Below are positions 37,401 to 52,797 of a stretch of DNA of 64,000 bases, in pieces. The first letter of the stretch is position 1; each line of letters opens with the position of its first letter. Location: the IMG/VR virus record IMGVR_UViG_3300042321_000183; one strand, given 5' to 3'. This DNA comes from a virus (Duplodnaviria; Heunggongvirae; Uroviricota; Caudoviricetes). The notes beneath the pieces were generated by a model. It made no database searches. It was not told the origin of the DNA and saw nothing but the letters and a program-made list of their open reading frames with translations. The position numbers were made by a program, and so were the translations under genes.

Positions 37401-37579
37401 AATCGCCCACCCCATGCAGGAGAATAGTCCCTACCCTTAATGTTATATCCAAGTCCTACAAAGTCAGGACCTACAGATACTTGGACATCATTAGGATTAG
37501 CTTTCTTGCCATAGTTATCCTTGGTCTTTTTCTTTAAGACTAAGCCTCCTTGTTCATATTTGTCTAACCAGTTAGCCAT
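34412..37579 (-). CDS. Hypothetical 1055-aa virion protein with a possible NlpC/P60- or CHAP-like cysteine peptidase segment
   Basis: SGIDPSLTCIGGVCNVYKDLGV (nt ~36740-36790) is followed ~90 aa later by DHTNIVLGSNPDGSVEVYNSYKH, a Cys ... His ... His arrangement reminiscent of cell-wall amidase/peptidase domains. The N-terminus MANWLDKYEQGG and the C-terminus GGWLNKYK share a WL(D/N)KY motif. Confidence 0.5.
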   Translation of the reverse strand: MANWLDKYEQGGLVLKKKTKDNYGKKANPNDVQVSVGPDFVGLGYNIKGRDYSPAWGGRFQNGGFLQPNSSKLPEGYVIPYNTPSTELAMSIGGEKGEPAYLIPSFKGGKKLKDPIAEYKKTGEHLGGPFKTWQEAEKFGEMRHEYVEKGQSLPSPLKWWDDMQMGGSMPGSVGFTYARVAGSAPANGKYTKKTKASAQNGQEMKFYQEGLDFKPKSISQDGKTIPNEKEEIKPITTSQKNIGQAAAWKVIEAIKANTPYQLSESAVKSGIDPSLTCIGGVCNVYKDLGVDFSGVGNEKQGVRESRTKGKVVEYNPTFDKNYKAAGFEKVKGRPIEFNELTDIIQKGNLNPGDFIQYYNKKGIPDHTNIVLGSNPDGSVEVYNSYKHGQVTRGESKEPYVYTLNPEAQDYKGKKINVFRVGDQKATEIRDASANDPSGITNTWFNYNMEKAIQRRMKILEKDYQELAKQSGEPAKKLTPSQLRKAAIEEERRIYESDPMFKRNLEIINTVDFSESPQEAMYRTLNKKKNGGWLDNYSEPIRDDRGQWAHPGKITEIGSNNITMQGVDYPVLGISDTGDTQMMYPDQDYKFDGEKVTEYPMAQDGENITKKLKKEAEEKLERMKKPKATLSQYTPKKGEQAKFDKQKLQRIAEDNAPLNRMAASKGAKNMQDAIEAALIMEGGLAASKLVGKGAKAAAKYATEQTALKNVYKLNPYAFKPTEGMMYRGIGKEGMEDALQSGLFRAKQNVTPTSIGNFNTTRQFSKAYYTPRFDIADQYGQGYIAEVPRGASDWGKRYGKKEWSQIAQRDIPITEGKVLQKDWLKRYKEVPKPTASEQVVRGPIPAPYKGTTLPYDNIGYKEPATGELAPYMTPEFEAIPYSELPKTVYHGGPSVISDAGAIRITREGLPIQSATSPTSRGFYATPNTWMHMEGSPNPLRDVEGFYPKLASENAENYAMGRGDAYIHGGEFVENPRIVDWKTFSQMEPVKNLNPDFRRLSPEAAKIAEDLGIYGLRDNSEYNILNPQKVFKSFKPAYKNLGKGWEKYNKGGWLNKYK

Positions 37580-38445
37580 TACTTATAAGAGATTTGAGCA
37601 GGTGCAATAATGAATTGAGAAACTATATGTGCTTCAGAGCTATTGTCAAGGATGTGTCTTACCTTTAAGTCTTTGGCTCTCAATGGTTCTTTCTTAAATG
37701 AACGTTTTCCATAATCCATATTCACTTGATTTACAACCTTATCTACTGATAAAGACTCACAACTTGTTCTAAACAAAGGTAATGATTTATTCTTAACTAA
37801 TCCCCAGAATGTATTATATTGATAGAAGTTATCTGACTTAGTATAAGTGATAGTCTTGCTAAAGTCATTATATATTGGGTAAGCTAAGTATTGTTTTAGG
37901 TTGTTGATTGGCTTTGGTACAAGTTCTAATATACCTGTAGACTGTTGTCCATTATATAGAACAGCTTTGTTAAACCATTGATTATCAACCTCTATCTTAG
38001 CAGTTTCATTAACCACTCCATCTACAGATGGTATATAGTTATACACCTTACTATAATCTTTAACATTCTGAAGTATCTCATCATAGGTTTGATAAGCAAA
38101 TGGATATTCAATTATGTATGGTTCTACATTACCATAGTATTTGTTATAATGTATTGTATCATCTAAATGCTTCCATATAGATCCTGTGTTACATACAGTG
38201 TAGTCTAAAGCAGCAAGCTGTTCTTTTGTAGCTGTACCAATTGTAACATTAATGCTAGTAGAACACTTACCTTTAGATCTTATAATTATTGTAGTAACAG
38301 AGTCAGCAACACTAACAGTATATCCATCAATAAGGTCTTGTTTAGTAATGTCAATGCCCAAGACTGTCCCTAAGTTATCAGAGATATCAAAGGGTCCTGT
38401 TCTGCCACCTGAGCAAGTTAATCTTATTATTACTGTTTTAGCCAT
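37579..38445 (-). CDS. Hypothetical 288-aa protein with a shared N-terminal anchor module (family A)
   Basis: The N-terminal ~70 aa (TGPFDI...GY.V...D..T.I...S.G.C) is homologous to the N-termini of ORFs 38456..38890 and 48017..48646. Confidence 0.6.
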   Translation of the reverse strand: MAKTVIIRLTCSGGRTGPFDISDNLGTVLGIDITKQDLIDGYTVSVADSVTTIIIRSKGKCSTSINVTIGTATKEQLAALDYTVCNTGSIWKHLDDTIHYNKYYGNVEPYIIEYPFAYQTYDEILQNVKDYSKVYNYIPSVDGVVNETAKIEVDNQWFNKAVLYNGQQSTGILELVPKPINNLKQYLAYPIYNDFSKTITYTKSDNFYQYNTFWGLVKNKSLPLFRTSCESLSVDKVVNQVNMDYGKRSFKKEPLRAKDLKVRHILDNSSEAHIVSQFIIAPAQISYK

Positions 38446-38455
38446 TTATATTATT

Positions 38456-38890
38456 TTAAACGCAAGGACAACTTGAAGCAGATAAAGTATTGTTAATTGT
38501 TAAACTTGGATAGGCAATAGTCATGGCTGATAGTAATCCTTGAGCAACATATTGATAACAGTTTGCTGTAGGTGTATTAGTATCTTGTACATTTCCTGTT
38601 GTTATTAATCCTATCTTATAATACTCATCTCCTGTATCACATCTTGTATATACAAATATGTAAGGATCATCAAGAGGCATGTCTACATAATTAACACACG
38701 CTCCTGTAGATTTAACTCTACAGATTGTTGTAAAATCAGGAACAGCACTTGATAAATATCCTGCAAGCAAAGACGCTTTAGGAACTGCTAATGCAAATGC
38801 TACAGCATAAGTGTCTGCATCTGAAAAAAGATCAAAAGGACCAGTGTTTGCTCCTGCAAAATTTAAACTTATTGTTGCTGAAAATGGCAT
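38456..38890 (-). CDS. Hypothetical 144-aa protein with a shared N-terminal anchor module (family A)
   Basis: MPFSATISLNFAGANTGPFDLFSDADTYAVAFALAVPKASLLAGYLSSAVPDFTTICRVKSTGACVNYVDMPL aligns with MTVLVTLTLAGTDVGPFNLYSNVDGYTTAIASGVSRAALVAGYNLLNVPDNASVIRVQSTGTCTNYLDILL of ORF 48017..48646. Confidence 0.6.
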   Translation of the reverse strand: MPFSATISLNFAGANTGPFDLFSDADTYAVAFALAVPKASLLAGYLSSAVPDFTTICRVKSTGACVNYVDMPLDDPYIFVYTRCDTGDEYYKIGLITTGNVQDTNTPTANCYQYVAQGLLSAMTIAYPSLTINNTLSASSCPCV

Positions 38891-38911
38891 ATTATTTTAT
38901 TTTATATTATT

Positions 38912-41900
38912 TTAACATTCATACCCAATGAAAGTTACATATACATTATCAGAAGATGCAATACATTGACCTGATACTGATGGAAGACTTCCCATTCCAA
39001 CAGAAGTTGAACCAACTCCTGCATTGTTACCATTGAGTATTGTAACATATACAGTGATATCACCATATGTACTAGTGGACACAACTACTTCTATTATAGT
39101 ATCTACATTTACATTACCACTAAGAGTAACTGAGGAATCTATATAAATCTCTCCTAATATATCAGAAGCACTTGCACCAAGGTTAGTTACAGTTCTTGCA
39201 ACAGGTGCTGCAGTTGTAGTGGTAGTAGTAGTAGAAGAAGTACTAGTTGTAGTTGTACATACAATACATGTTCCTACATCGAATGTAGCAATTCCAGATG
39301 TATTAGGATCATTGATTGTTGCAGCTCTATAGCTATTACCAGTGCGAACCCATACTGGTACACCAGCTGGTGATAGTACAAACTCATCACATTGAATTGC
39401 AGTTGCAGAACAGAATGGTGGATCAGTCAATATTACATTTGTCATTGTTAAAGCAGTACCACAAGCATCATCAGGACCTGCTGAACTATATCTATAAAGA
39501 GATGGTTGTGGTGTAGTGGTAGTGCTAGTTGTAGGAGTAGGAGTTGTTGTACTTGTTGTAGTAACAGATACACGTATAAATTCTCCTGCTGTTAATCTAC
39601 AATCAGGTTCTGTTGTAAAAGATCCTGGAATTAATATACAGTCAAAAGGCACAGCAGTTGTGGTAGTAGTAGTGGTACTAGTAGAAGTAGATGTAGATGT
39701 TGTTGTAGTGGTAGTGGTTTGTTGTGAAGCTGTTCCTCCTAAAAGACAAGGATATCCTACCACTACAGCTGTACCAGTTAGGTTACAGTATATAATTCTT
39801 GTTGTTGTTGTAGTTGTGGTTGGAGAAGGTATTGGTACAACTGCCACTGCTGTGACATCACAACCTTCATTTAATCCAGAATAGAAGAAGCTGTTTTCTC
39901 CTATATAGAAGTTAGGAAGATATGTATGAAAACTCACCCAACTCTTTGTATTGAAGTTAAATGAAACAGTCCATGATTTGTTACAGAAGTATTCAAGATC
40001 TGTCACCTCGATATATTTCTTAACTACAAGATCACCAGCTACTGGTTGGTCAACATAAAACTGTTTAACCACCTCATCATAAAATACCTCTTTACCTGGT
40101 TGTGGAACATAGTCTAACTTAGTAATTATTACTCTTTCAAATACACTATCATACACACCATGAATACCAATATTCTTGAAATGATTATCTGTGTTAACTG
40201 TTGGGAAGTATCTTAGTATTTCAAATGCTAAATGATTTGTAAAGAATCTATTAAGACCAGAACCAAATCCTGAAATATCAGTTGCTTGTGTTCCTTGAAT
40301 TAAAAATACTTGACATCTCTTAGCATCAATAGTTATCTGCCCTTGAGGTATCTTAAGCAACATCTTATTTTGACAACCAACATATCCAAGATCTGTTTCA
40401 GCGTAATCTATAGGAGGTGGTTCAACACTGCTGAATAATGAAGGATTACCTAAATAAGCTGCTTGAGGATTACTTGTATTCAATGTTAACATGTTACCAT
40501 ATAACAATGTCTTGTTCTCAAATCTAGCTAGTGTAGCTCTGTTCTGAATACCATCTAAAGATATAAGATTACCATAGTTTTGAGGGAAATCAAAGAAGCT
40601 CACTGGACGATATATCAACCAGCTATTTATTCTATTGTCAGAATAACTTTCTTGTCTATCAGAGTATATTGCTCTGAATGGAAAGTTTTTATAACATAAT
40701 TGCTGTATCCAATCTGCAGGCAAGTGAGAGAAGAAGTTCTCTACATTCTGCTTAGAGAAGGTTGTATTGTAATAATATGTATTATCAAGAGCAATAGGAA
40801 CTCTACTTTCTTGGAACCAAGTATCAGGGATACCTGAACTTACATGTGGATAGAAGTCACCTTCTAAGTTATTGAATGCCTGACGTAAGTCTACATTAAT
40901 AGAACTCTCTACATAATAGTAAGGAATACCATAAGCAAACAAGTACATCTTACCATCATACACATAATTCAAAGAACCAGCTATTACTGTTCCTGGAGCA
41001 GGTGTAGTTGTAGAAGTTGTTGTACCACTGTCAGCAATATCATCATTAGGACAATCAAGATAATGTGCTTTGGTAGAGATTATATTCTTCATTACAGTAG
41101 AGCCTACAGTAAAATCAGACAAGATAGATCTTGCTGAATACCAATATTGTGGGTAAGCTACATTACCTATCTCATCATAATATATATCAGAATCATCAGG
41201 AGCATTCACTCTATTATCAATAAAGAATGGAAGTTTTGTTTTAAATCCAAACTTACCAATATATGTATCACCACCAAATATTACTTCAGGATCATTAGCA
41301 GATATTGCACTGAATATTCTTTGGAATCCTGTGTCAATAGTTTGATATGAATATATCTGTCCCCATTGAGCATTATTAATAGCCTTTATAGAACCATAGT
41401 AAGATACTACTTTGATATCTCTCTGAGCTTCAGGACTAGCACAGTTTTCTGCTTCTGAAATTGTAAATCTTGAAGTGTCACTAATTTGACTTACACCTGC
41501 TACAACAAGAGAAGGGGTGTCATTAGGATATGGCAAAGGTGATACAGGTATTCCATTTCTAACATCAATAGTTTTAACATAAACTGAAGACTCTCTGTTC
41601 CAGTTATTAAGATCATAATTATCACCTACGTTCTGTACACCTGGAAATACGTATTGAGCTAGATCAAGTTGTCTTTGTTTAATTCCTTGATTATTAGAAA
41701 TATCTGCACTATAATCATAACTAGATATAGAGTTAAATGAATATGCAAAGTTTTGTCTACTAATACCATTGATATAAATCTGTAAGTAAGTTTGATATGC
41801 TGTAAAGAATGCTGTAGGACTAAATCCCCCAAGATCAGCTATTCTCTTACTAGAGGTTAAAGCATCAACTTGTGTTTGTTCAGTGATAAGCTTATACATA

Positions 41901-44473
41901 GCATGTTTCTGCACTTCAACAAAATGAGCTCTTCCTCCACCAAATAATACACTCTCTAACTTAAGAACATTACCTAGTGTAGGTTGTCCAAAAGAAGTCT
42001 CTGGAGAATTAAATACTTGTCTGTAAGCAGACTCAGGATTATTAAATCCATCTAATTTATTAGGATAACAATTTAAGTTTTCACTTGTGTTGCTAGCTAC
42101 TATTTTATAATTACTTAGTCCTGATGTTCTTACAGGGAAAGTGGTAGAGTTAAATGTTTTAACGTTGTTACCACCTACAACACTACCTACTGTTATACTT
42201 TGTAATGCTCCTGTAACTGGATCTGTATAATTAAATGTAACAGAACTAACAGCTGAATTATTTGTAATTGTATAAGTAGTAGTTGTAGTATTTGTAAATG
42301 TTGCAGAACCACTATTTACAACAGGAAGTGTGATAGAACATATTTCAGTGGTACTGCTAGTAAAAGCTTGTGTATCTACTTCTCCTGTAAAACAGTTTGT
42401 GTATTGTAAGATACCAGGAGTTGTCACTGATACAGAGAACGTATCACATTGAGAGTTGTAAGCATTGTTTCTCTCAAGTAAGAATGGATCTTCACTTAAG
42501 TCATTGTATGGATAGTTAGGATAGTAGTAGTATGTAGCATTAGGATCAGCAGGATCTTCTCTAGTGTATTTACCTACATTTCTAAGAATACCTTTAGCAA
42601 TAATAGATTTGTTTGTACTTCTATTACCTCTTACTATTTTAAATCCAGCAATAGATGCCTTCTCTTCATTTGTTAAACTAGAGCTTTGAATAGCAAATGC
42701 CACTTGTTGTACATCTATCTTCACACCTATTGGATAGATAGCATTGGCAACTTGCATTACAGGTTCTATCTGACCTCCATTATATACAATGCTTGGACTC
42801 TCAAAGTAAGGACTTACAAGAACATCAGGAAATTTATGGTGTCTAATTGGTTTACCAGCTAAGTCTCCCCATACATCTACGTTACATGGATACTCCTCAG
42901 TAGACTCCCAATATGCAAAGTCTCCAGATTGATAAGGGTATGCCTCTCCTATCTTCCTAGTATTGTCTGTAGGAACAGGATACGTTGTAGATACACTGGC
43001 TGTATTATATATTTTCCAATTAGGACTATATTTATAAAGTGTAACAGGTTCAACATTAGTAGCAGTACCTATGAAGTCAGGAGTTGCATTAGGACCAGTT
43101 TCATAAATAGGAGTTAAATCATTAGAAATTGGTGATCTACCAGGAATATGAAAACCATCTGTTTGCTTACCATTGGTTAATAAGAATACAATTTCAAATG
43201 CATAAACCTCATCTCTTAAATATCCTCTTAAGTTGGAAGTATAAAAACCATCAGCATAGGTGTTACCAGCTGGCAGTTTATATGTCTCCCATTGAAGTTG
43301 TACTTGATTAGCAACGCTTTGATAGTTGATTCTATCAATAGAAGTTAAGTTGTCCCAAACAATAACATCTTGTACGTTTGTTACATCTTGAGCAATCTCA
43401 TAATAAGGAAACTTTTCAAGAACATCTGCAAGACTCAAAGGAATCTGAGTTGTGTTCTGTCCTGTATAAGTTATACTTGTAGACTTTTCTTCAATGTTAT
43501 ATGTTCCCACTAATTCTACAGTGGTACCATTATTAATGGTCTTTATAACAGCTAAGTTAAAGTATTGGAAGTATCCTGTAACATCTAAGTTAGTAATATT
43601 TAATACAATAGATTCACCTACAGAATATTGAAAATCAGGAGTTGTTATTTCTGTATTAGCAATAGATGTAGGATTAGTTATAGAGAAGTAGGATGTATAA
43701 GCATCTCCTGAAGCATTACCATATTGAATAGCAAATTGATAAGTACCAGCTCTCAAATCTCCTCCTACAACAATTTCAGCAACTTCTATATTAGGAATTT
43801 GAAAGTTAGGTTGTACATCTAACTTATTACAATCAAGAACTCCTTGTCCATCTACTACTAGAATAGTTGGATCACAAGTATTACCTCCTTCATATGAAAA
43901 AACATATGGAACTTGCTCAATGTTAATATATCTTCTTGGATTTAATCCATCAGTCCAATAAACCTCAGTGGTACAGTTTGTAATCTTATGTACAGCCTTG
44001 TGTATTGGATAGTTTATATCAAAGTTTAAACATTCTGAGTTAGCACAAACTGTTAAGTCTGTATCAGGAATAGGAGTACAAAGTGTGCGATATACACAAT
44101 CATTGTTATCCATATATCCTATCTCACTTCCTCCTGTTTGAGGATTCGCTAAGAAGAATATGTGTTTGTTTTTCTCTTGTATGAAATGAGTTCCAATAAG
44201 CTGAAAGCCTTCAGGAAACTCTAAGCAAGCTTCATTACTTGGCTCATTCTGATAGCTTACAGAATTAGCGTCAAAGTTTTCTAATGCTGCGTTTAGAGCA
44301 TAAGAAAGCTTACCCTTCTGTATTTGATTTACAGAAGAGTCCATGTCTAATCCAACTCTGCCAAGATTAAATTCTTGTCTTACGTTAGATGTTCCTTGAT
44401 TATCTATTCCATCCTCTGCCATATCTTGAGCTTCTATTTGGTAATTCATATTGTCCAAAGCGTTGTAAGTCAT
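38912..44473 (-). CDS. Large tail / host-recognition protein, 1853 aa, with poly-Thr/Ser linkers
   Basis: It is a long ORF in the tail region. The C-terminal third contains low-complexity linkers (TTTTTTTRIIYCN, TTTTTTTSTSTSTSTTTTTTT, TTTSTSSTTTTTTT) separating Cys-containing modules. The N-terminal 74 nt overlap the upstream gene. Confidence 0.6.
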   Translation of the reverse strand: MTYNALDNMNYQIEAQDMAEDGIDNQGTSNVRQEFNLGRVGLDMDSSVNQIQKGKLSYALNAALENFDANSVSYQNEPSNEACLEFPEGFQLIGTHFIQEKNKHIFFLANPQTGGSEIGYMDNNDCVYRTLCTPIPDTDLTVCANSECLNFDINYPIHKAVHKITNCTTEVYWTDGLNPRRYINIEQVPYVFSYEGGNTCDPTILVVDGQGVLDCNKLDVQPNFQIPNIEVAEIVVGGDLRAGTYQFAIQYGNASGDAYTSYFSITNPTSIANTEITTPDFQYSVGESIVLNITNLDVTGYFQYFNLAVIKTINNGTTVELVGTYNIEEKSTSITYTGQNTTQIPLSLADVLEKFPYYEIAQDVTNVQDVIVWDNLTSIDRINYQSVANQVQLQWETYKLPAGNTYADGFYTSNLRGYLRDEVYAFEIVFLLTNGKQTDGFHIPGRSPISNDLTPIYETGPNATPDFIGTATNVEPVTLYKYSPNWKIYNTASVSTTYPVPTDNTRKIGEAYPYQSGDFAYWESTEEYPCNVDVWGDLAGKPIRHHKFPDVLVSPYFESPSIVYNGGQIEPVMQVANAIYPIGVKIDVQQVAFAIQSSSLTNEEKASIAGFKIVRGNRSTNKSIIAKGILRNVGKYTREDPADPNATYYYYPNYPYNDLSEDPFLLERNNAYNSQCDTFSVSVTTPGILQYTNCFTGEVDTQAFTSSTTEICSITLPVVNSGSATFTNTTTTTYTITNNSAVSSVTFNYTDPVTGALQSITVGSVVGGNNVKTFNSTTFPVRTSGLSNYKIVASNTSENLNCYPNKLDGFNNPESAYRQVFNSPETSFGQPTLGNVLKLESVLFGGGRAHFVEVQKHAMYKLITEQTQVDALTSSKRIADLGGFSPTAFFTAYQTYLQIYINGISRQNFAYSFNSISSYDYSADISNNQGIKQRQLDLAQYVFPGVQNVGDNYDLNNWNRESSVYVKTIDVRNGIPVSPLPYPNDTPSLVVAGVSQISDTSRFTISEAENCASPEAQRDIKVVSYYGSIKAINNAQWGQIYSYQTIDTGFQRIFSAISANDPEVIFGGDTYIGKFGFKTKLPFFIDNRVNAPDDSDIYYDEIGNVAYPQYWYSARSILSDFTVGSTVMKNIISTKAHYLDCPNDDIADSGTTTSTTTPAPGTVIAGSLNYVYDGKMYLFAYGIPYYYVESSINVDLRQAFNNLEGDFYPHVSSGIPDTWFQESRVPIALDNTYYYNTTFSKQNVENFFSHLPADWIQQLCYKNFPFRAIYSDRQESYSDNRINSWLIYRPVSFFDFPQNYGNLISLDGIQNRATLARFENKTLLYGNMLTLNTSNPQAAYLGNPSLFSSVEPPPIDYAETDLGYVGCQNKMLLKIPQGQITIDAKRCQVFLIQGTQATDISGFGSGLNRFFTNHLAFEILRYFPTVNTDNHFKNIGIHGVYDSVFERVIITKLDYVPQPGKEVFYDEVVKQFYVDQPVAGDLVVKKYIEVTDLEYFCNKSWTVSFNFNTKSWVSFHTYLPNFYIGENSFFYSGLNEGCDVTAVAVVPIPSPTTTTTTTRIIYCNLTGTAVVVGYPCLLGGTASQQTTTTTTTSTSTSTSTTTTTTTAVPFDCILIPGSFTTEPDCRLTAGEFIRVSVTTTSTTTPTPTTSTTTTPQPSLYRYSSAGPDDACGTALTMTNVILTDPPFCSATAIQCDEFVLSPAGVPVWVRTGNSYRAATINDPNTSGIATFDVGTCIVCTTTTSTSSTTTTTTTAAPVARTVTNLGASASDILGEIYIDSSVTLSGNVNVDTIIEVVVSTSTYGDITVYVTILNGNNAGVGSTSVGMGSLPSVSGQCIASSDNVYVTFIGYEC

Positions 44474-45371: not shown

Positions 45372-45377
45372 GTTCTT

Positions 45378-45854: not shown

Positions 45855-46591
45855 TAGCTTGTTGGTTTTGCATTGGGAGCTTGTCCATCAATGCCATCAA
45901 ATGTTTGGTCTGTTTTAATGCTAAAGTATGTCGATAATAGTTTTTGAGAAGTAAGTTGTAACACTTGTGTTATTAAGTAGCCTGGGCATCCAAACTCTTT
46001 GTCTAATGGATTTATACAATACTCTTCATTTGTTACAGAAGGAATGTTTCCACAAGCACAATCATCAGGATATAAAATACTGTTTGGAATATCTTCTTCA
46101 AAGAATGCAGATATTCTAACTGATTTTAAGTTAGGATTGTTAACATATAGATACCCACCATTAGCTATCCAATAGTATTGTTCAGCTTTTATGATAGGAA
46201 GTTTTAATAGATTTAAGTATCTATTGATTGTAATCTCTTTGAATCTTTTTCCTTTACCTCCCATAGCGTTTATAGAATAAACACCTTGGATTAAGTATTG
46301 ATAGTTTCCCTCACTGATGCGAGGAAGTTTGTATTTGCTTCTTGCAACTTGACAAGGGTCCACATATTCACAGCAATCAGAAATAGGCACCTCTAGCATT
46401 TCCAAACAAGGAAGTGTTTGAAATACAGTATCAGTAGCCCAAAGCTTTCTGAGATTAGTCTCACGTTTGATTAGTAAAAATGTGTTGTTCTTGATTTCAG
46501 ACGCAACCACTCTATCAGTAATTAGATTATCTGTAGTGAGCAATTTATGTACTGAACGTACATCTGAAACCATTTGTCTTAATGTTGCCAT
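45854..46591 (-). CDS. Hypothetical 245-aa protein
   Basis: The ORF is chained to its neighbours by 1-nt overlaps. Confidence 0.5.
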   Translation of the reverse strand: MATLRQMVSDVRSVHKLLTTDNLITDRVVASEIKNNTFLLIKRETNLRKLWATDTVFQTLPCLEMLEVPISDCCEYVDPCQVARSKYKLPRISEGNYQYLIQGVYSINAMGGKGKRFKEITINRYLNLLKLPIIKAEQYYWIANGGYLYVNNPNLKSVRISAFFEEDIPNSILYPDDCACGNIPSVTNEEYCINPLDKEFGCPGYLITQVLQLTSQKLLSTYFSIKTDQTFDGIDGQAPNAKPTS

Positions 46592-47841
46592 TATAAATAC
46601 TGTTTGAATATATTTGTCATCCCATCACAGTCATCTATTAAAAATCCTGTTACTTCTGCCTTGGACATTGTGTGACCCATCTTGTCGTCCCAAAGACTTT
46701 TAGCATTTGAAAATGCTGGAATTTGATAAAACTTTATACCATTGAAATCATGACTCACCTCATGGTGTTTGTCTCCTGTAAAAATGTAAAACTTGCTATG
46801 ACTAGACCAATGTTCTCTAAACTCTATTGGGAATAAAGCTGCAAGCTTAGCTGGTTTGATAGCATCTCCATGGTTAAACATCAATGCTGAATCACCATAG
46901 CTTACATACTTTCTATACTTAGGAGATAAATCAAATGCTAATCTCTCTGTATTTCTGAAGTAGGTTTGTAACCAGTTAACTAAATGCCAACCTACAAACT
47001 CATCATGATTACCTGCCACATAGATTACATTTACATTCTGAGCATATTGTAATAACATTGTAATCATTAACACCTCATGTCCACAGATGTATTCAAAAGA
47101 TGTATGATATGTATGCGTGTTCTGTTGAGGAGTTCCTTTTGTAGTGGCATTTGTATACTCACTGTTAAACTCATCAGATCCTATTATGTAAGTTATGTTC
47201 TGCAAGTTGTTGGATAACTGAGCTTGATTAGCTATCAGTTCCACCTTGTACATAATGTTAGCTAGTCTATCTGCTACATTATTATTACCATCTATGTCCC
47301 ATTTGTTTAAGTGAGAGTCTTGTTTGTTGATAACTAACATACCATTTGGTTTGTTAAAGTCAACCTTAGGACTCATAACTTCTTGAGACACAGGCTTATA
47401 TGAAGCTAAAAAGTCTACAAACACATCTTGAAAAACTTGTTCTGTAGACTTCTTCCCTAACCATGCTTTGACTTGCCAATGAGGATTGTTTCCATTTCCC
47501 CAGAAGTTTTGAACATATTTGGTTATCTCCCACTTCTCTGTATCTATCTTACATTTCTCAATGAGTTCGTCTAAACTCTTAACCTCTTCGCTAAAGTTGG
47601 CTACAACCTCTCCTGTACCCTTAGCTAGATCTTCTGTAAACTTAATAACCCTGTTTTCTAGATCAGCAATATAGTTCCCTATCTCAGCATCTTCTTCACT
47701 CTTCTCTTGATTTCTTAATTCTTTTAATAGCTCATCCACCTCAAACTCTGTAATTCCAAGCTTATCAGCATAGAACTTTTTACTTTTTTTCCAGTGTAGA
47801 ATCTCTTCTAGCTGTTGCAGCAAGGATTGATTTTCAGGCAT
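46591..47841 (-). CDS. Calcineurin-like metallophosphoesterase
   Basis: VIYVAGNHDEF (the GNH[DE] motif, nt ~46999-47025) and FTGDKHHEVSHD (the GHxH-type motif) are core metallophosphatase signatures. It is the first gene after a strong terminator and an AT-rich gap. Confidence 0.65.
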   Translation of the reverse strand: MPENQSLLQQLEEILHWKKSKKFYADKLGITEFEVDELLKELRNQEKSEEDAEIGNYIADLENRVIKFTEDLAKGTGEVVANFSEEVKSLDELIEKCKIDTEKWEITKYVQNFWGNGNNPHWQVKAWLGKKSTEQVFQDVFVDFLASYKPVSQEVMSPKVDFNKPNGMLVINKQDSHLNKWDIDGNNNVADRLANIMYKVELIANQAQLSNNLQNITYIIGSDEFNSEYTNATTKGTPQQNTHTYHTSFEYICGHEVLMITMLLQYAQNVNVIYVAGNHDEFVGWHLVNWLQTYFRNTERLAFDLSPKYRKYVSYGDSALMFNHGDAIKPAKLAALFPIEFREHWSSHSKFYIFTGDKHHEVSHDFNGIKFYQIPAFSNAKSLWDDKMGHTMSKAEVTGFLIDDCDGMTNIFKQYL

Positions 47842-47940: not shown

Positions 47941-47954
47941 AGTTAGAGTTTAAA

Positions 47955-47985
47955 CAAAAAACCCCCAGGGTAGAAACCCTAGGGG
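47955..47985 (-). terminator. Rho-independent terminator after ORF 48017..48646
   Basis: On the - strand the sequence is CCCCUAGGG-uuucua-CCCUGGGGG, a 9-bp stem with one G-U pair, followed by UUUUUUG. It is GC-rich in an AT-rich background and sits 30 nt past the stop codon. Confidence 0.65.
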
Positions 47986-48016
47986 AGACCATCTGTAAAC
48001 CAACAAACAGGGGTTT

Positions 48017-48646
48017 TTAATCAGGTGTGTTGCAAGTTGCAACTAAACTAAATGTACCAGAGCTAGTGAAACAGTTCACTGTATCTGTTCTTAAGCGATA
48101 GCTACCTGCAGATAAGATGTTAGAAGGTAATGTTGATGCCCAAGTTCCTGGACTCATGCTTGTCTGAGTATAAGTGAACGTATATAAAACTGTGGTATTT
48201 GCAGCATCCATAATGTAACATGCATATGTTCTTGTACCAGTTCCAGAGTAGTAATATCCACCAGGAGTGATAAGAGCTGTATTTCCTGCAGTCACTGTGA
48301 ATGGAGCAGATTCACCTCCAGAACATGTAGCGAGTGCATTTCTATCACCAGTTATACATTCAACAAATGCTGTGGTTGTAGAGGTTGTTGTAGAAGTAGA
48401 AGTGCTACTAGTTGTAGTGGTTGTTGCACCACTTAAAAGTATATCAAGATAATTTGTACAAGTGCCTGTAGATTGTACTCTGATAACAGAAGCATTATCA
48501 GGCACATTTAAAAGATTGTATCCTGCTACTAATGCAGCTCTAGATACACCACTTGCTATTGCTGTGGTATATCCATCTACATTTGAATAAAGGTTAAAGG
48601 GACCTACGTCTGTCCCTGCTAATGTTAATGTTACTAAGACTGTCAT
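48017..48646 (-). CDS. Small receptor-binding/fiber-like protein (209 aa), family A N-terminal module plus poly-Thr linker
   Basis: The N-terminus is shared with 38456..38890 and 37579..38445. The linker is TTTTTSSTSTSTTTSTTT. It is followed by a strong terminator. Confidence 0.6.
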   Translation of the reverse strand: MTVLVTLTLAGTDVGPFNLYSNVDGYTTAIASGVSRAALVAGYNLLNVPDNASVIRVQSTGTCTNYLDILLSGATTTTTSSTSTSTTTSTTTAFVECITGDRNALATCSGGESAPFTVTAGNTALITPGGYYYSGTGTRTYACYIMDAANTTVLYTFTYTQTSMSPGTWASTLPSNILSAGSYRLRTDTVNCFTSSGTFSLVATCNTPD

Positions 48647-48668
48647 ATTATTGATTTGTTTGGTTTAA

Positions 48669-50183
48669 TTAAGATAATTTTGTCCAAGTAGATCCACCAT
48701 TTGTAGATCTCCAAAGTCCAGTTGTTTCTGCAGCAATTGCTACAGTTGCATTATAAGAAATTGATACACTAGTCCAAAGTTTAGAACTTGCTACTGAAGA
48801 AAGTGTACCAAATGAAACTGATTTATATAAAGTGCTTGCTCCTGAAGTACCTGGAACAGCTATTATATTTGTACCACTTCCATCTATAGTTACACCAAGC
48901 CATTGAGTAGAAACTCCACCAAAATTTGCATACGTGTCACCATAATCTATACTTCTTTTCAACTGAACATTTCCAGGACTATATCCGTAAAATCCACCTT
49001 GATTAGCAACAACCACTTTTGATCCATCAGCAGAGGTACTCACTCCATAATATGTTTGATTACCATCTTGAGCTTTGGGTGTAAAATTACCTAAAGCAGT
49101 TGTTGTTCTTCCTACAGTTCCATCAAATGCTGCCATACTAAGATTAATGGTAGCAGCATATTGACGATTACCTGAACTATCTACTGTAACAGCATAGGGT
49201 GCTTGAGGATAAAGACCACCAAAAGAAAAATCTACTCTTACAAAAGATACTCCATAATCTGAAGATCTCCAAATTTGACCCAACCCTGATTCTGCTTCAC
49301 CTAAATTTATTGCTCCAACAATTACATATTGTCCTGTTCTATTTGTAGTAATTGAAGAATATGCTCCTGTTGCAGTACCTGTAGTATTCCAATTAACACC
49401 ATAATCTGTAGATCTTGAAATAACACCTGGTTGTCCTTGAGCTTGTGAAAGACAATACATATACTCACCTGTTCCACTTACAGCAACTCTATAGAGTGTA
49501 TTTGTCCCAGCAACAGTAACTGTTGTATAAGTAAGTCCATAGTCATTAGAAATATATAATTTATTATTTGTAACGCATATTGTAGCTACATATTTTCCAT
49601 CATTTGAGCTAGTAACATCATCTCTACTTACAATAGTCTGAATAAAATTAAGGTTGTTAGTTGGATTAAATATAGTTGTTGTTGTTGTTGTTGTTGTTGA
49701 TCCACAAGGTCCAGTTTTACAATTACCAATAGGTGTTAACGTTCCTGTACCTGATACGATGTTAGCTTGTAATAAGCCACCAATAACAGCTGCACAAATA
49801 TATCTAGTACCAGCTGTTGCATAAACATAGTTTTCATTTACTCCAAAACAATTAAATGTTGCTACTTCACCACCAGCAGATGTAATATTTACTTCAACAC
49901 AATTACAAGGATCTGAAATAAATGTTGTGGTTGTACTTGTTGTACTTGTACTTGATGTAGTAGTTGTAGTTGGAGGTGAAACTAAATTAGACTTAACAAC
50001 AAGTTCATTAACAGACTTACCTGTAGGAATTATATTTACAAAAAATTCTGCTTCACCTGAAGTTACTTGTTTAGTGTTAGGAACAGGAATTATATTCTTT
50101 AATGTAAATACTCCATTGTTCACAGCATCCTGTAAATTATTTAATGAAACACATTGATTATTTGCTATTGATGCCCAACTCAT
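48669..50183 (-). CDS. BNR/Asp-box repeat (beta-propeller, sialidase-like fold) protein with a family B N-terminal module
   Basis: There are at least five Asp-box-like repeats: ISNDYGLTYTTV, RSTDYGVNWNTT, RSSDYGVSFVRV, RSIDYGDTYANF, RSTNGGSTWTKL (consensus S-x-D-x-G-x-T-W). The N-terminal ~75 aa (MSWASIANNQCVSLNNLQDAVNNGVFTLKN...) is about 70% identical to the N-terminus of ORF 50216..50896. The linker is poly-Thr. Confidence 0.65.
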   Translation of the reverse strand: MSWASIANNQCVSLNNLQDAVNNGVFTLKNIIPVPNTKQVTSGEAEFFVNIIPTGKSVNELVVKSNLVSPPTTTTTSSTSTTSTTTTFISDPCNCVEVNITSAGGEVATFNCFGVNENYVYATAGTRYICAAVIGGLLQANIVSGTGTLTPIGNCKTGPCGSTTTTTTTTIFNPTNNLNFIQTIVSRDDVTSSNDGKYVATICVTNNKLYISNDYGLTYTTVTVAGTNTLYRVAVSGTGEYMYCLSQAQGQPGVISRSTDYGVNWNTTGTATGAYSSITTNRTGQYVIVGAINLGEAESGLGQIWRSSDYGVSFVRVDFSFGGLYPQAPYAVTVDSSGNRQYAATINLSMAAFDGTVGRTTTALGNFTPKAQDGNQTYYGVSTSADGSKVVVANQGGFYGYSPGNVQLKRSIDYGDTYANFGGVSTQWLGVTIDGSGTNIIAVPGTSGASTLYKSVSFGTLSSVASSKLWTSVSISYNATVAIAAETTGLWRSTNGGSTWTKLS

Positions 50184-50215
50184 TACTTATTTAATATTAA
50201 TTTGGTTTTAAAATA

Positions 50216-50896
50216 TTATATTGGGCAACCTAATGTAAATGACCACGCAGTTCCTGGAAGAGGAGCATAAACAAAAACATTTGCTGTAGTTGGTGAGGAA
50301 GCATTTTTAGAAAATACAGAAGTTCCATTACCAGGACTTACTACTAGTGGATAACCATCTCCTGGCCATTGAGTAGTGTTTGGATAAGTTAATCCTGTTA
50401 TAGGATCTACTTTACCACTTAAAGAAGAATTAAAGTTACTTCTAAGACTTCCTCCAATGTTATAATTAGAATTACCTCTATATCCTGTATCAATTACAAA
50501 ATTACCATTCCATTGAACTATAAATCTATCAGGAACATTTTGTGCATCAAATGTCAGAGTAGTATTTCCTGTACCACTACCAACTGTAATTGTGAATGGT
50601 GTTGGATATGTAACTCCTCCTGAATAAGAAGTTGGATTTCCACAAGGAGTTGGAACTTGAGTAGTTGATGTAGTTGTTGTACTACCAGAAGATATTACAT
50701 CACTTTTAATTACAAGTTCATTAGCAGACCTATTTGTTATATTTTGAATGTTTACATAAAATTCTGCTTCATTTCTAGTGACTTGTTTGTTACTAACAGG
50801 GATAGCATTTTTTAATGTAAACACATTATTGTTTACACCATCTTGTAAATTATTGCAAGAAATACACTGATTGTTTGTTAAGGATGCCCAACTCAT
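50216..50896 (-). CDS. Hypothetical 226-aa protein, paralogous N-terminal module (family B) with a different C-terminal domain
   Basis: MSWASLTNNQCISCNNLQDGVNNNVFTLKNAIPVSNKQVTRNEAEFYVNI... aligns with the N-terminus of 48669..50183 and is followed by a TTTTSTT linker. Confidence 0.6.
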   Translation of the reverse strand: MSWASLTNNQCISCNNLQDGVNNNVFTLKNAIPVSNKQVTRNEAEFYVNIQNITNRSANELVIKSDVISSGSTTTTSTTQVPTPCGNPTSYSGGVTYPTPFTITVGSGTGNTTLTFDAQNVPDRFIVQWNGNFVIDTGYRGNSNYNIGGSLRSNFNSSLSGKVDPITGLTYPNTTQWPGDGYPLVVSPGNGTSVFSKNASSPTTANVFVYAPLPGTAWSFTLGCPI

Positions 50897-50898
50897 TA

Positions 50899-52797
50899 TT
50901 ATTTTAATTTAGCTTCAAGTTCTGCAATACGTTTTTCTAATGCTGCTATCTTTAATGTATGAACAGCTATGTAGTTTACACTTAACTTTTCATCTATCTC
51001 ATTAACAACATCAGGAATAATTTCTTGTACTTGTTGAGCTGAATAACCATAGTTAATTGTATTAGTTACAATATCAGTACGCTTAAATTTAATTACATCT
51101 ATTCCAAGCACATTTATTTCTGGGTTCCATTCTAATACATCCTTATACCTAATATCAGAAGTTTCAAAAAATGCTGGAGCTGTAACACCAGATGAATCAA
51201 TTGTAACCACATCAGCATTCATTGCTCTAATTATCACACCTCCACCATTATAGTTACCAATAAATGCTGTATAACCTGATGTAGGAAGTAATTGTAATGT
51301 AGCAGTATTACTACCACCTAATGCTCTAACTGTAACGTATGGTTCTATGCCTGCAAAATCTGCAACATAGTTTCCTGCTGGTTGACCATTACCTAGATAT
51401 ACATTAAGTCTTGATCCTGGATTAGGACCACCTATTGATGTATAATTATCATCATCATATATAGAACATCCTACAGCAGAAGTAGCACTACTATATTTAA
51501 GAACTTGATTAGTAGCACCAGAAATACTATTAGATACACCAGAAGATCCACTAGTACCACTAACCCCAGAAGATCCAGAGCTACCTGATGATCCAGAAGA
51601 GCCAGATGAACCTGAAGATCCACTAGACCCTGATGATCCATTTGTACCAGTTGTTCCATTGGTACCACTAGTACCACTAGAACCAGAAGTTCCATTTGTT
51701 CCACTTGTACCTGTTGTTCCAGAAGTGCCAGTTGTTCCATTAGTACCAGAAGTACCAGCTGTACCAGACGTACCACTAGTACCAGCTGTACCATTTGTTC
51801 CAGAAGAACCAGAAGTACCACTAGAACCATTACCACCTGCAGCTCCTGCTAAGTTAACTGTCCAAGAACTATAAGTTCCTGAACCTACAGTAGCACTTGG
51901 TGTACCTAAAACTAAAACACCTGTTCCAGAGTTATAAGATGTAACTGGAGAAGTTTGATAGTTTGATCCATTAAATGAAATTAATACAGATTGTGCTATG
52001 GTATAAGAAAGTCCTGTACCAACAGTAATTGTACCTCCACTTCCTAGTGTAAATGAGCTAACTGATGTTGTAGCATATTTATCACCTGATAGTCCTGCTG
52101 TACCACTGGTTGCATTTTGACCACTTGTGCCACTGCTTCCATTAGCTCCGTCAGCTCCTGCTGTTCCTGCTGTTCCTGCTGTTCCACTAGAGCCATCAGT
52201 ACCACTTGTACCACTATTACCACTTGATCCTGAATTTCCACTTGTACCACTACTACCACTGATTCCAGAACTACCATCAACACCACTAGAACCATTTTTA
52301 CCAGCAGTTCCTGAACTTCCAGAAGATCCAGAAGAACCAGACAAAGCTGATGTACCAGAAGAACCTGCTGTACCATTTACACCAGCAGCACCTTGAGCAC
52401 CAGTTACACCACTAGAGCCAGAAGAACCAGAGGTTCCAGAAGAACCACTTGTACTAGGAGTTCCACTAGTTCCTGATGTTCCATTTTTTCCACCACCTCC
52501 ACCACCTGTTACTACATAGTCAATTTTTTCTAATGCAGTGGTTAAAGTGTCACAAGTGTTAACACCTGAGTTAGGAAGATTAGGTCCAACATAGACAGTA
52601 TTATTACTATTATAAGGAGCATCTGCACAGCCTGTAGCACCACACCAGCAGCCCCAGCCACCAGTGCCAGCAGTGCCAGCAGTACCAACACATCCACAAT
52701 CACCCACTACACCACCACAACAACCACAGTTTTGACCAGGTTGATAATATGCAGTGTAACAAGGATTAGGATTAGGATAGCAAGAAGAACAAGACAT
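50899..52797 (-). CDS. Collagen-like fiber protein with a Cys-rich N-terminus and a C-terminal S74-type chaperone domain
   Basis: It has two G-X-Y arrays plus the shared [12 protein letters not shown]...GSGTYSSWTVNL module. The C-terminus TSDIRYKDVLEWNPEINVLGIDVIKFKRTD...YGYSAQQVQEIIPDVV (nt ~50899-51175) matches the S74 chaperone signature. The N-terminus MSCSSCYPNPNPCY...CCGG..C is Cys-rich. Confidence 0.8.
   Translation of the reverse strand: MSCSSCYPNPNPCYTAYYQPGQNCGCCGGVVGDCGCVGTAGTAGTGGWGCWCGATGCADAPYNSNNTVYVGPNLPNSGVNTCDTLTTALEKIDYVVTGGGGGGKNGTSGTSGTPSTSGSSGTSGSSGSSGVTGAQGAAGVNGTAGSSGTSALSGSSGSSGSSGTAGKNGSSGVDGSSGISGSSGTSGNSGSSGNSGTSGTDGSSGTAGTAGTAGADGANGSSGTSGQNATSGTAGLSGDKYATTSVSSFTLGSGGTITVGTGLSYTIAQSVLISFNGSNYQTSPVTSYNSGTGVLVLGTPSATVGSGTYSSWTVNLAGAAGGNGSSGTSGSSGTNGTAGTSGTSGTAGTSGTNGTTGTSGTTGTSGTNGTSGSSGTSGTNGTTGTNGSSGSSGSSGSSGSSGSSGSSGSSGVSGTSGSSGVSNSISGATNQVLKYSSATSAVGCSIYDDDNYTSIGGPNPGSRLNVYLGNGQPAGNYVADFAGIEPYVTVRALGGSNTATLQLLPTSGYTAFIGNYNGGGVIIRAMNADVVTIDSSGVTAPAFFETSDIRYKDVLEWNPEINVLGIDVIKFKRTDIVTNTINYGYSAQQVQEIIPDVVNEIDEKLSVNYIAVHTLKIAALEKRIAELEAKLK

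Follow-up and report, generated by a model that had tools for sequence, protein, structure and literature searches.

The region at positions 37579-52797, together with its neighbours, is the tail-appendage or host-attachment locus (the adsorption apparatus) of a crAss-like phage; it encodes a split muzzle protein (the gatekeeper of the tail tip) and four N-terminal modules that are probably handles bearing interchangeable distal parts. Four short modules would serve as conserved handles (A and B, each of ~70 aa; the Cys-rich C, of ~50 aa; and E, of ~90 aa), each followed by an exchangeable distal part such as a BNR propeller, a small Cys-containing domain or a collagen fibre with a chaperone domain, connected through a poly-Thr/Ser linker, collagen-like repeats or a coiled coil.

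The window, that is the whole stretch of 64,000 nt that was analysed, is the structural module of an uncultured environmental crAss-like phage (a podovirus). This assignment is based on Pfam matches to Crass_capsid, P22_portal, CrAss_Ring_1, CrAss_Ring_2 and crAss_MUZ and on profile matches to crAss001 proteins (Ring2 to gp40, Ring1 to gp43, the IHF-like protein to gp42 and a ring-4-like protein to gp34), with the synteny Ring2, IHF-like, Ring1 and muzzle matching crAss001 gp40-gp44. The eight open reading frames of the original prediction were confirmed at their coordinates, all on the minus strand. The comparison set comprised 83 related metagenomic loci, with architectures counted over 82 of them and A3 and muzzle genes over 44. 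The features of the locus are as follows.

6072-8906, minus strand: third collagen-like fibre gene, 944 aa; collagen match (E 5.7e-52) and Peptidase_S74 intramolecular-chaperone domain (E 3.8e-16)
8931-10991, minus strand: C1 gene, 686 aa; C-module aa 5-49 (nt 10845-10979), then collagen-like repeats; 40 kb from the main cluster
37579-38445, minus strand: A3 gene, 288 aa; A-module aa 1-70 (nt 38236-38445), no poly-Thr/Ser linker, MuzC aa 89-288 (nt 37582-38181)
38456-38890, minus strand: A2 gene, 144 aa; A-module aa 1-74, then a 70-aa distal domain, without linker
38912-39865, minus strand: MuzN tail, aa 1537-1853 and TAA stop; four small domains and four poly-Thr/Ser linkers
39866-44473, minus strand: MuzN core, aa 1-1536 of the 1853-aa muzzle protein, the portion aligning with contiguous muzzle proteins
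47962-47985, minus strand: terminator-like hairpin directly after the A1 stop; 10-bp stem with 7 G-C pairs, then a T-run (consensus match only)
48017-48646, minus strand: A1 gene, 209 aa; A-module aa 1-72 (nt 48431-48646), poly-Thr/Ser linker aa 74-93 (nt 48368-48427), distal domain aa 94-209
48669-50183, minus strand: B2 gene, 504 aa; B-module aa 1-70, linker aa 71-88, small domain aa 89-160, linker aa 161-171, Asp-box (BNR) propeller-like region aa 172-504
50216-50896, minus strand: B1 gene, 226 aa; B-module aa 1-68, linker aa 69-80 (nt 50657-50692), distal domain aa 81-226
50899-52797, minus strand: C2 gene, 632 aa; Cys-rich N-terminal extension, C-module about aa 50-97 (nt 52507-52650), globular insert between two collagen-like segments, S74-chaperone-like C-terminus aa 547-598
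52819-53976, minus strand: D gene, 385 aa; C-module aa 3-50 (nt 53827-53970), then a conserved fibre-like body
53985-54260, minus strand: E gene, 91 aa; fourth N-module family, module-only here (HMM E 1.7e-43)

At least four sets of genes had originally been proposed to share an N-terminal module; the modules are significant by HMM comparison and shuffling (z-scores of 12-36 for A, B and the C1-C2 pair), but the genes listed form three families, A, B and C. Family A is supported by BLASTP (A1-A2, 46% identity over 68 aa, E 2e-17; A2-A3, E 5e-7; A1-A3, E 3e-5), by shuffling (z-scores of 28, 14 and 13.5, none of 2000 shuffles reaching the observed score) and by an HMM trained on non-window relatives only, which matched all three genes (E 1e-33, 2e-26 and 2e-25) and nothing else in the six-frame translated window. 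The ~70% identity claimed for family B was reproduced (69% over 70 aa, E 1e-24, z-score 36; non-window HMM E 1.5e-27 and 5e-23), as was the link between C1 and C2 (module z-score 12.4). A non-window HMM for family C gave E-values of 1.4e-18 for C2, 4.5e-18 for D and 3.6e-16 for C1, and the family consists of a Cys-rich module of roughly 50 aa common to these three proteins. The shared start MSC(E/S)SCY of C2 and D, put forward as a separate set, covers 7 aa (E 4.9; C2-D z-score 1.6) and belongs to the start of the C module. The E gene, which lies just outside the range 37579-52797, had been overlooked; its residues 1-69 match the N-termini of proteins of 410 and 640 aa in two related loci (L003 and L002), in which the E modules are 100% identical and the C-terminal parts differ. 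No Pfam or NCBIfam match was found for the A, B, C and E modules, nor any match to A and B in 50,697 deposited phage genomes, and the four are new sequence families.

The A-module was modelled as a small beta-sandwich of ~70 aa (pLDDT 91) whose neighbours in a structure search are FN3-like, and has a generic Ig/FN3-like fold; no sequence match to the Pfam Ig and FN3 families was detected. Folds of this kind are commoner in displayed accessory adhesion domains than in anchors, an observation that runs against a handle role. One cysteine is kept in 96% of 111 distinct A-modules, and no second cysteine of the module is conserved as its partner. In the related loci the A-module stands at the N-terminus without exception and is conserved, the C-terminal parts behind it being variable; stand-alone proteins of 72-75 aa are very common, and genomes carry one to five free A genes, except that in some (such as L066 and L067) A3 is the only A gene. 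Identity between the A3-type and free-type modules is just ~30%. A1 keeps its place immediately upstream of p416 (length in relatives, 71-427 aa), and its distal domain belongs to a cluster of ten distinct sequences (14 occurrences) found on A proteins only. A2 is missing in 24 of 44 related loci and is an optional extra cassette placed between the muzzle gene halves; its distal domain is also seen on the muzzle tail of another phage.

In family B, none of the 83 related loci has a counterpart to the distal domain of B1, a protein with a weak match to PHROG 13374; the distal domain of B2 also occurs on 17 A-module proteins. A BNR propeller, one of the distal domains originally proposed, is supported in B2: the BNR_6 match (21.9 bits) lies under the Pfam cut-off, and homologues with the same N-module match Sortilin-Vps10 and BNR families down to 3e-15. 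The B-module was found in 320 representative clusters, and among the best 150 of these it starts at residue 1-4 in 147, in proteins of 57-855 aa.

Collagen fibres were likewise confirmed with Pfam (PF01391; E 2.7e-44 for C1 and 1e-28 for C2), their repeats here being Gly-Ser/Thr-rich and devoid of proline. C1 and C2 share an internal domain (64% identity over 129 aa), and the C-terminus of C2, whose Peptidase_S74 match (E 0.009, 16.8 bits) is under the cut-off of 22, aligns with that of the third collagen-like protein (E 3e-7), which none of the four non-window module HMMs matched. The D gene has full-length homologues in nearly all related loci; it opens the cluster as its first fibre gene and is conserved. 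The tail-collar assignment made for it found no support in Pfam, NCBIfam or PDB, the sole match being PHROG 8469 'tail fiber' (E 1.6e-13). The C-module also forms the N-terminus of proteins annotated as tail-fibre or virion structural in Lbo-JY46 and in Cellulophaga phi17:2 and phi4:1. Poly-Thr/Ser linkers, announced as a general feature, follow the module in A1, B1 and B2 only; A2 and A3 lack them, and C1 and C2 carry collagen-like repeats instead. In a linker scan such tracts were found in appendage proteins only.

The proposed polarity of an N-terminal anchor and a distal C-terminal domain fails for A3, which is not a receptor-binding fusion: its residues 89-288 are the ~200-residue C-terminus of the muzzle protein (MuzC). 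MuzC matches positions 1588-1781 of the 1783 of PHROG 15100, the final ~195 aa of the muzzle proteins that Lbo-JY46 and FpV phages encode as a single CDS (tblastn) and Lbo-JY46 residues 1459-1641 of 1654 (hhalign, probability 98.9%), with no match to Pfam crAss_MUZ or crAss_MUZ_C. The MuzN core matches crAss_MUZ (PF25731, the muzzle N-terminal region; E 7.6e-30) and PHROGs 37948 and 15100, and aligns with Lbo-JY46 residues 30-1457. The muzzle is one polypeptide in outgroup phages and a split gene in all 44 relatives, the split lying at a tight junction and being conserved across the clade. A3 (287-301 aa, 2601 database homologues) is present in 44 of 44 related loci, always with the A-module, which AlphaFold2 predicted confidently in A3; MuzC did not fold by itself in that model. 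MuzN ends at a TAA, with a second in-frame TAA shortly downstream, and measures 1497-2197 aa in relatives, between which its tail varies: the tail domains are missing in L005, where the core is 97% identical, and occur elsewhere on A- and C-module proteins. The N-fragment ends in a variable string of linker-joined domains and the C-fragment begins with an A-module; the gap between them is a second insertion site for extra A genes such as A2, and the two fragments would reassemble non-covalently.

Related genomes showed conserved N-modules with exchanged downstream domains, as had been predicted. A-modules are carried on 28 unrelated C-terminal clusters and C-modules on 16 among the 83 loci, with N-modules up to 98.5% and 100% identical, respectively, preceding unrelated tails. 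The same distal domains, the BNR propeller for instance, occur on different handle types and on the muzzle tail, and are exchanged both between phages and between handle types. Within each family of the window, the C-terminal parts are unrelated to one another by BLASTP, in agreement with the original prediction. The cassette order is fixed in relatives (D, C-type, B-type or other, A-type, then p416), with 63 distinct architectures among 82 loci, and the hairpin after A1 is likely to mark the end of the fibre transcription unit. In L005, p416, the rings, the muzzle core and A3 are 96-100% identical, and the fibre cassette is unrelated or just 34-41% identical, pointing to a recent cassette replacement. 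Genes that encode a module and nothing more are common (72 aa for A, 81-127 aa for C, 88-107 aa for E), which fits handles with a structural role of their own. The repeated modules had been thought to provide recombination substrates within the genome, but their DNA identity of 54-73%, with longest exact matches of 7-14 nt, makes them poor ones; exchange takes place between phages.

By analogy with crAss001, the N-modules would dock on the virion, fixing proteins at conserved tail sites, with C-type trimeric fibres in a disulfide-rich hub and A-type proteins at or near the muzzle, while the distal domains would touch the host surface and set adsorption specificity. Sequence and profile comparison detected no homology of the modules to the crAss001 hub, fibre N-termini or other docking elements. 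Between phages with 96-100% identical tail core proteins, the B- and C2-type modules share just 34-41% identity. This would not be expected if their binding partner were a conserved core protein, although it could be explained if these proteins dock on one another and are exchanged together. Furthermore, the anchor of A3 is its C-terminal part, so the A-module is no anchor there. Its position on the N-terminus of an integral muzzle fragment would also suit a displayed Ig-like accessory adhesion domain of the Hoc/BAM kind, weakly binding host or environmental glycans and attached to the virion only where fused, with free A-proteins held by their C-terminal parts. We consider this unlikely: nothing would hold the very common module-only proteins, the A-module is consistently the conserved N-terminal part ahead of variable ones, and the C-terminal domains of A-proteins are also carried by B handles, C handles and the muzzle tail, as befits cargo and not an anchor.

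Still less probable is that the N-modules are oligomerisation, assembly or chaperone-recognition tags, A-A pairing for example allowing free A-proteins to hang on the A3 module at the muzzle. The unpartnered conserved cysteine is compatible with an intermolecular disulfide, and the presence of an A-module on A3 in all 44 loci and the one to five free A genes per genome agree with such pairing, but genomes with A3 and no free A gene exist, the two module types have diverged widely and self-association has no direct evidence. That the resemblance arose by chance or from low-complexity sequence, or that these are ordinary duplicates within the genome without any exchange of domains, is scarcely credible, even if the MSCxSCY match by itself is not significant and the C1-C2 BLAST match falls in the collagen and internal domain: it is refuted by HMMs built without the window (all eight genes matched at E 1e-16 to 1e-33, with no further match in the window), by the shuffle z-scores and by the cross-genome mosaics. 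Shuffling of distal parts is supported by near-identical N-modules carrying unrelated tails and by distal domains common to several module types.

Receptor-binding proteins of modular build, in which the N-terminal anchor is conserved and the C-terminal domains can be exchanged, are known from the fibres and spikes of T7, SP6 and K1F and from the anchor-branch systems of Klebsiella phages. As in these, N-termini are conserved and C-termini unrelated among close relatives here, exchange occurring at or near the module boundary; unlike them, the modules form new sequence families, several handle types draw on one distal-domain pool and handle-only genes are common. Ig-like and FN3-like accessory domains occur on phage structural proteins, as in T4 Hoc and as reportedly described by Fraser et al. 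(2006). The A-module resembles them in being a small beta-sandwich appended to a structural protein in A3, but is mostly a conserved N-terminal part or stand-alone and not a terminal add-on. Proteins of Virus NIOZ-UU157 (UniProt A0A7S9XH99, A0A7S9STY0, A0A7S9SU37, A0A7S9XFL2 and A0A7S9SU94; 77, 77, 287, 417 and 939 aa) match the A-module (Foldseek E 1e-6 to 1e-4, TM 0.83-0.88, 27-45% identity) and, like the family here, range from module-only through A3-like to extended forms; these uncharacterised proteins are family members and not an explanation. Among collagen fibres with a Peptidase_S74 chaperone of the endosialidase type, the 944-aa protein passes both Pfam cut-offs and C1 and C2 that for Collagen, in contrast to the sub-threshold S74 match of C2. 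General shuffling of phage protein fragments is described in PMC10684548.

In crAss001, the fibre gp22 docks in the THA2-THB tail hub through its residues 1-26, the head fibres gp21 and gp29 use residues 1-38 and 1-58 to dock in pockets of the capsid, disulfides stabilise the hubs and the muzzle gp44 is hexameric (Bayfield et al., 2023; PMC10172136). The A, B, C and E modules, p185 and p416 have no sequence or profile similarity to gp21-gp29, gp38 or gp39, the fibre genes are not beside the portal but have the putative hub genes on one side and Ring2 on the other, and the single 1371-aa muzzle chain of crAss001 corresponds to two genes with linker-joined extra domains. On the other hand, the muzzle N-terminal region is shared at the level of Pfam, the gene order is partly the same and the same virion plan is recognizable from the genes, and short N-terminal docking segments and Cys-rich hub components make crAss001 the working analogy for this locus.

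The long open reading frames of the window, from ~5 kb to 64 kb, are all carried by the minus strand; those with assigned tail and capsid functions and those bearing the N-terminal modules ('handles') are as follows.

Structural and module-bearing genes of the window
61609-63942, minus strand, P22-like portal (Pfam)
58087-59640, minus strand, crassvirus major capsid protein (Pfam)
53985-54260, minus strand, E, 91-aa representative of module family E
52819-53976, minus strand, D, C-module fibre gene
50899-52797, minus strand, C2, family C
50216-50896, minus strand, B1, family B
48669-50183, minus strand, B2, family B
48017-48646, minus strand, A1, family A
45854-46591, minus strand, crAss tail ring protein 2, Ring2 (Pfam)
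44400-45371, minus strand, crAss tail ring protein 1, Ring1 (Pfam)
38912-44473, minus strand, crassvirus muzzle protein, MuzN, 1853 aa (Pfam PF25731 crAss_MUZ)
38456-38890, minus strand, A2, family A
37579-38445, minus strand, A3, family A
8931-10991, minus strand, C1, family C

MuzN matches model positions 9-286 of PF25731 with 104.2 bits (cut-off 27, E = 7.6e-30), and the muzzle protein of a related metagenomic locus (L002) reaches 134 bits. The tail genes follow one another as Ring2, IHF-like protein, Ring1 and muzzle, the last directly after Ring1, an order identical to that of gp40-gp44 in crAss001. Using profiles built from relatives, HMM-sequence searches and hhalign against the crAss001 proteins linked Ring2 to gp40, Ring1 to gp43, a 158-aa protein to the IHF-like gp42 and a 243-aa, ring-4-like protein to the ring protein gp34; these were the sole links, none being made for A, B, C, E, the C-terminal muzzle fragment MuzC (A3 aa 89-288), p185 or p416. 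A megablast search of deposited phages with the region gave no match, and the nearest annotated relatives at the protein level are Leptolyngbya phage Lbo-JY46, the Cellulophaga phages phi17:2 and phi4:1 and the Flavobacterium psychrophilum FpV phages. Taken together, the protein families, the crAss001 profile links and these relatives assign the locus, on sequence grounds, to an uncultured crAss-like phage, in whose structural module it forms the tail part. Synteny alone prompts the idea that p185 and E could be the hub proteins THA and THB.

Throughout the window, the 25 nt upstream of gene starts are AT-rich and without a Shine-Dalgarno-like GGAG, and stop-codon usage (TAA 28, TGA 4, TAG 3) gives no sign of reassignment, a pattern consistent with a Bacteroidota-type host. 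Of the terminator-like hairpins in the region, the strongest (47962-47985, minus strand; a 10-bp stem with seven G-C pairs, followed by a T-run) lies directly past the A1 stop and ahead of p416, which suggests that the fibre genes may form their own transcription unit. The p416 gene (46591-47841, minus strand), directly upstream of Ring2 and conserved in all relatives and in Lbo-JY46, encodes motifs recognizable by eye (DxH, GNHDE and a GDKHH-like motif) that are reminiscent of metallophosphoesterases; the protein matched no Pfam or NCBIfam model. Adjoining the ring-4-like gene, a 386-aa protein (55013-56173, minus strand) ends in two poly-Thr/Ser stretches (55022-55081), as does its L002 homologue; the protein might sit at the surface of the capsid or tail and expose a short display tail. 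Two giant minus-strand ORFs (11161-16395, 1744 aa, with no Pfam match, and 16407-28844, 4145 aa) lie downstream of the genes associated with the muzzle. Judging by position, and as known for crAss-like phages, their products are presumably cargo packaged in the virion or resemble RNA polymerases.

The eight ORFs of the original prediction are all present, and the N-terminal similarity described for them is significant for families A and B by BLASTP, by shuffling and with HMMs. Family A gave E values of 2e-17, 5e-7 and 3e-5 (shuffle z-scores 28, 14 and 13.5), and B1 and B2 share 69% identity across 70 aa (E = 1e-24, z = 36). Module HMMs built from related loci alone, with every window sequence excluded from training, and searched against all six-frame window ORFs matched exactly the three A genes (E = 1e-33, 2e-26 and 2e-25) and exactly the two B genes (E = 1.5e-27 and 5e-23), while the C HMM found C2, D and C1 (E = 1.4e-18, 4.5e-18 and 3.6e-16, respectively); the motif Y.GPNL...G.NT.D.L.T...KI is therefore real. 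A word-indexed search with the C-module alignment returned only five short matches. The shared start MSC(E/S)SCY, proposed as a separate fourth set, is not significant alone (E = 4.9; z = 1.6) and is the beginning of the ~50-aa Cys-rich C-module, with consensus CSCCYNGC..VRYTGPNLPCLGIQTGDNLTVVLQKID; the families listed are thus real but number three rather than four, family E being an additional one. Likewise, the poly-Thr/Ser linkers attributed to the modules follow A1, B1 and B2 only, and C1 and C2 run into collagen-like repeats. Between p185 and E lies a 50-aa Cys-rich ORF (54220-54372, minus strand; MANCRGCGMKVGCGCQ...) that overlaps the start of 53985-54260 and is conserved in ten related loci.

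Neither module A nor module B occurred in any of the 50,697 deposited phage genomes that were searched, yet both have hundreds to thousands of metagenomic relatives; judged by these searches, they are uncharacterised new families. In Lbo-JY46 and the Cellulophaga phages, proteins annotated as tail fibres or virion structural proteins begin with the C-module. A profile search with the A-module returned 214 proteins, mostly stand-alone (72-125 aa, either the bare module or the module extended by a poly-Thr tail). An exhaustive search with the B-module returned 320 representative clusters; among the best 150, the module starts at residue 1-4 in 147 and total lengths range from 57 to 855 aa, the long members mostly bearing BNR or Sortilin-type propellers.

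The central idea of conserved handles with exchangeable distal domains fits the comparative data. Related genomes do exchange C-terminal parts behind conserved N-modules, as is apparent after clustering of the downstream parts with low-complexity sequence masked.

C-terminal diversity behind each module (distinct proteins; unrelated C-terminal clusters; top N-module identity on unrelated tails)
Module A: 117; 28; 98.5%
Module C: 121; 16; 100%
Module E: 40; 3; 100%
Module B: 20; 3; 69%

When the proteins were cut at their linkers, the B2-type Asp-box propeller was found on 24 B proteins and 17 A proteins, a 98-aa domain was common to A proteins and muzzle tails, a 250-aa domain was common to C proteins and muzzle tails, and the distal domain of A2 also formed the C-terminal end of the muzzle of another phage. 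Several handle types and the muzzle thus share, unusually explicitly, one pool of distal domains. Identity between the window and one related locus (L005) is 96-100% for p416, the rings, the muzzle core (MuzN aa 1-1536) and A3 but only 34-41% for the C- and B-modules; L005 has neither the distal domains of the window's B proteins nor that of A2, and lacks most of the domains of the window's muzzle tail. The clusters and this comparison reveal two modes of exchange, namely replacement of whole-gene cassettes and swapping behind an unchanged module. The exchange partners are, from the sequences compared, other phages and not paralogues within the genome: the repeated N-terminal sequences had been regarded as recombination substrates, which is unlikely since paralogous modules share only 54-73% DNA identity, with exact matches of 7-14 nt. 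The intergenic stretches 38446-38455 and 38891-38911 carry the same AT-rich string, TAAAATAATATAAA, before the start codons of A2 and A3, which would fit an insertion of A2 by junction duplication.

Context look-up and a Ring2 scan gathered 83 related loci (Ring2 71-96% identical), which are arranged on a fixed scaffold.

Gene order of the related loci
Start: p243, p386, p185 and the 50-aa Cys-rich ORF
Next: E (88-107 aa; 410 or 640 aa in L002-L004), then D
Next: C-module protein (81 to 1541 aa), then a B-module or unclassified protein
Next: one to four A-module proteins (71-427 aa)
Next: p416, Ring2, IHF-like protein, Ring1
End: MuzN (1497-2197 aa), zero to two extra A genes, A3 (287-301 aa), large protein

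The interval from D to p416 displays 63 different architectures in 82 loci, among which the window alone has a tandem pair of B genes. In two loci (L002, 2334-4256; L003, 3311-4543) the E module precedes large C-terminal parts behind poly-Thr linkers; these E-proteins, of 640 aa (with Pfam Ice_binding and Fib_succ_major matches) and 410 aa, respectively, are 100% identical to each other in their first 85 residues.

As for the distal domains themselves, the proposed BNR propeller finds its support at the family level: B2 remains below the cut-off for Pfam BNR_6 (21.9 bits; cut-off 27), and among 50 proteins with its N-module 15 match Sortilin-Vps10 (best E = 3e-15) and 14 match BNR_6 (best E = 1.5e-11). 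The collagen fibres are confirmed by Pfam. The tail collar placed in D (52819-53976) is not supported, as none was detected in Pfam at E <= 5, in NCBIfam or among PDB sequences, the only match being PHROG 8469 'tail fiber protein'. The C-terminus of C2 matches Pfam PF13884 Peptidase_S74 with 16.8 bits (cut-off 22, E = 0.009) and aligns (E = 3e-7) to that of its paralogue 6072-8906, which scores 59.5 bits. These fold classes, an Asp-box propeller and collagen with an S74 domain, hint at C-terminal parts that may bind or degrade the host surface. Adjoining the collagen-like fibre genes 6072-8906 and 8931-10991 is a 2OG-Fe(II) oxygenase gene (5014-5616, minus strand; PF13640, E = 2.5e-15), for which a prolyl-hydroxylase role is not obvious because the Gly-X-Y repeats of both fibres are Ser/Thr-rich and without proline.

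The main correction concerns A3, which had been taken for another fusion to an N-terminal anchor; its anchor is the C-terminal part, a fragment of the muzzle. Residues 89-288 correspond to the last 195 positions of PHROG 15100, the first 430 of which correspond to the 1853-aa MuzN, and also match the last ~195 residues of the Lbo-JY46 and FpV muzzle proteins (Lbo-JY46 residues 1459-1641 of 1654 with 98.9% probability by profile comparison). Both muzzle parts lie within one annotated CDS in Lbo-JY46 and FpV4; in the window the muzzle is not a single polypeptide, its last ~200 residues being encoded by the separate gene 37579-38445. The alignment to Lbo-JY46 passes from MuzN residue 1536 (Lbo 1457) to A3 residues ~86-89 (Lbo 1459-1462), and between these points lie, in order, 317 residues of small domains joined by linkers, a TAA stop soon followed by another TAA in frame, the A2 gene, a further stop and the start of A3 with its A-module. 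Readthrough, recoding or a frameshift across the split was rejected given the two in-frame TAA codons, the position of A3 in another frame, the two-gene layout shared by relatives and the use of all three stop codons as gene ends in the window. The layout is found in 44 of the 44 related loci that reach that far, and A3 has 2601 database homologues; among the best 120 of these, 103 have a length of exactly 288 aa and the others of 260-301 aa. Such a conserved fission of a crassvirus muzzle appears to be undescribed in the literature searched.

The muzzle C-terminus of crAss001, gp44, matches PF25729 crAss_MUZ_C (E = 7e-28); A3 matched no Pfam model at E <= 1, PF25729 included, and no sequence link was made between MuzC and gp44. 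Searches of PDB sequences with A3, the muzzle, D and B2 produced no usable match. In crAss001 the later propeller blades are located in the C-terminal third of the muzzle, and by analogy we infer that MuzC may supply propeller blades. In an AlphaFold2 model of full-length A3 the A-module is folded confidently (block means of pLDDT 71-93), and residues 86-288 fall below 50 with a shallow alignment; the unfolded MuzC is compatible with a fragment that would need a partner, the shallow alignment making this weak evidence. Within the muzzle, aa 701-830 (41984-42373) are far more variable than the flanks (52-84% versus 73-97% identity), and further poly-Thr stretches occur at aa 727-735 and 1149-1158 (the latter at 41000-41029); both features could mark further sites of insertion within the crass or IG2 region.

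The handles most probably fix their proteins in the tail. This reading is favoured by their conservation as the part that is always N-terminal, by their frequent occurrence without any cargo, by the presence of their cargo domains on the muzzle tail, a part certainly carried by the virion, and by the tail-fibre and structural proteins that the C-module heads in Lbo-JY46 and the Cellulophaga phages. A precedent exists in crAss001, the fibres of which dock by short N-terminal segments into disulfide-stabilised hubs and capsid pockets (PMC10172136); the N-modules have no homology to these known docking segments. Counting against simple docking, A3 is held by its C-terminal part, and B- and C2-type modules are strongly diverged between phages with near-identical tail cores. 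The predicted fold of the A-module (pLDDT 91, pTM 0.79), a β-sandwich of six strands (seven in the A3 model) with a single short helix, is moreover typical of displayed adhesion domains, and a displayed Ig-like adhesion domain is one of the two main rivals; A1 and A2 matched no Pfam family at E <= 5, Ig and FN3 families included, nor did the module match NCBIfam. Foldseek found nothing significant in the PDB, and the sole real matches in BFVD were five uncharacterised proteins of Virus NIOZ-UU157 (77, 77, 287, 417 and 939 aa).

The other main rival holds that the N-modules are oligomerisation tags, for example through A-A pairing on A3. Of 111 distinct A-modules, 96% share one conserved cysteine, which has no conserved partner within the module. 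In a scheme that we consider rather unlikely, the gatekeeper at the tail tip would have become a naturally split, two-gene protein among environmental crAss-like phages of one large and abundant clade, each half bearing display modules at the break point, and the ~70-aa A-module would act as a universal plug, possibly locked through its conserved cysteine, by which free A-proteins assemble on the muzzle-borne A3. The tail tip would then become a combinatorial receptor-binding display, sharing one pool of distal domains with the hub fibres.

Foreign domains are tolerated at the positions marked by the natural break in the muzzle, by the poly-Thr linkers and by the handle-only variants, which is useful for display or host-range engineering in crAss-like phages; the same features help to predict the specificity-setting genes of uncultured members. 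A conserved N-terminal anchor with swapped receptor-binding domains is a known route to altered host range, and the general mechanism is not new; what is new here are the handle families A and B, the pool of distal domains common to the handles and the muzzle, and the conserved fission of the muzzle itself.
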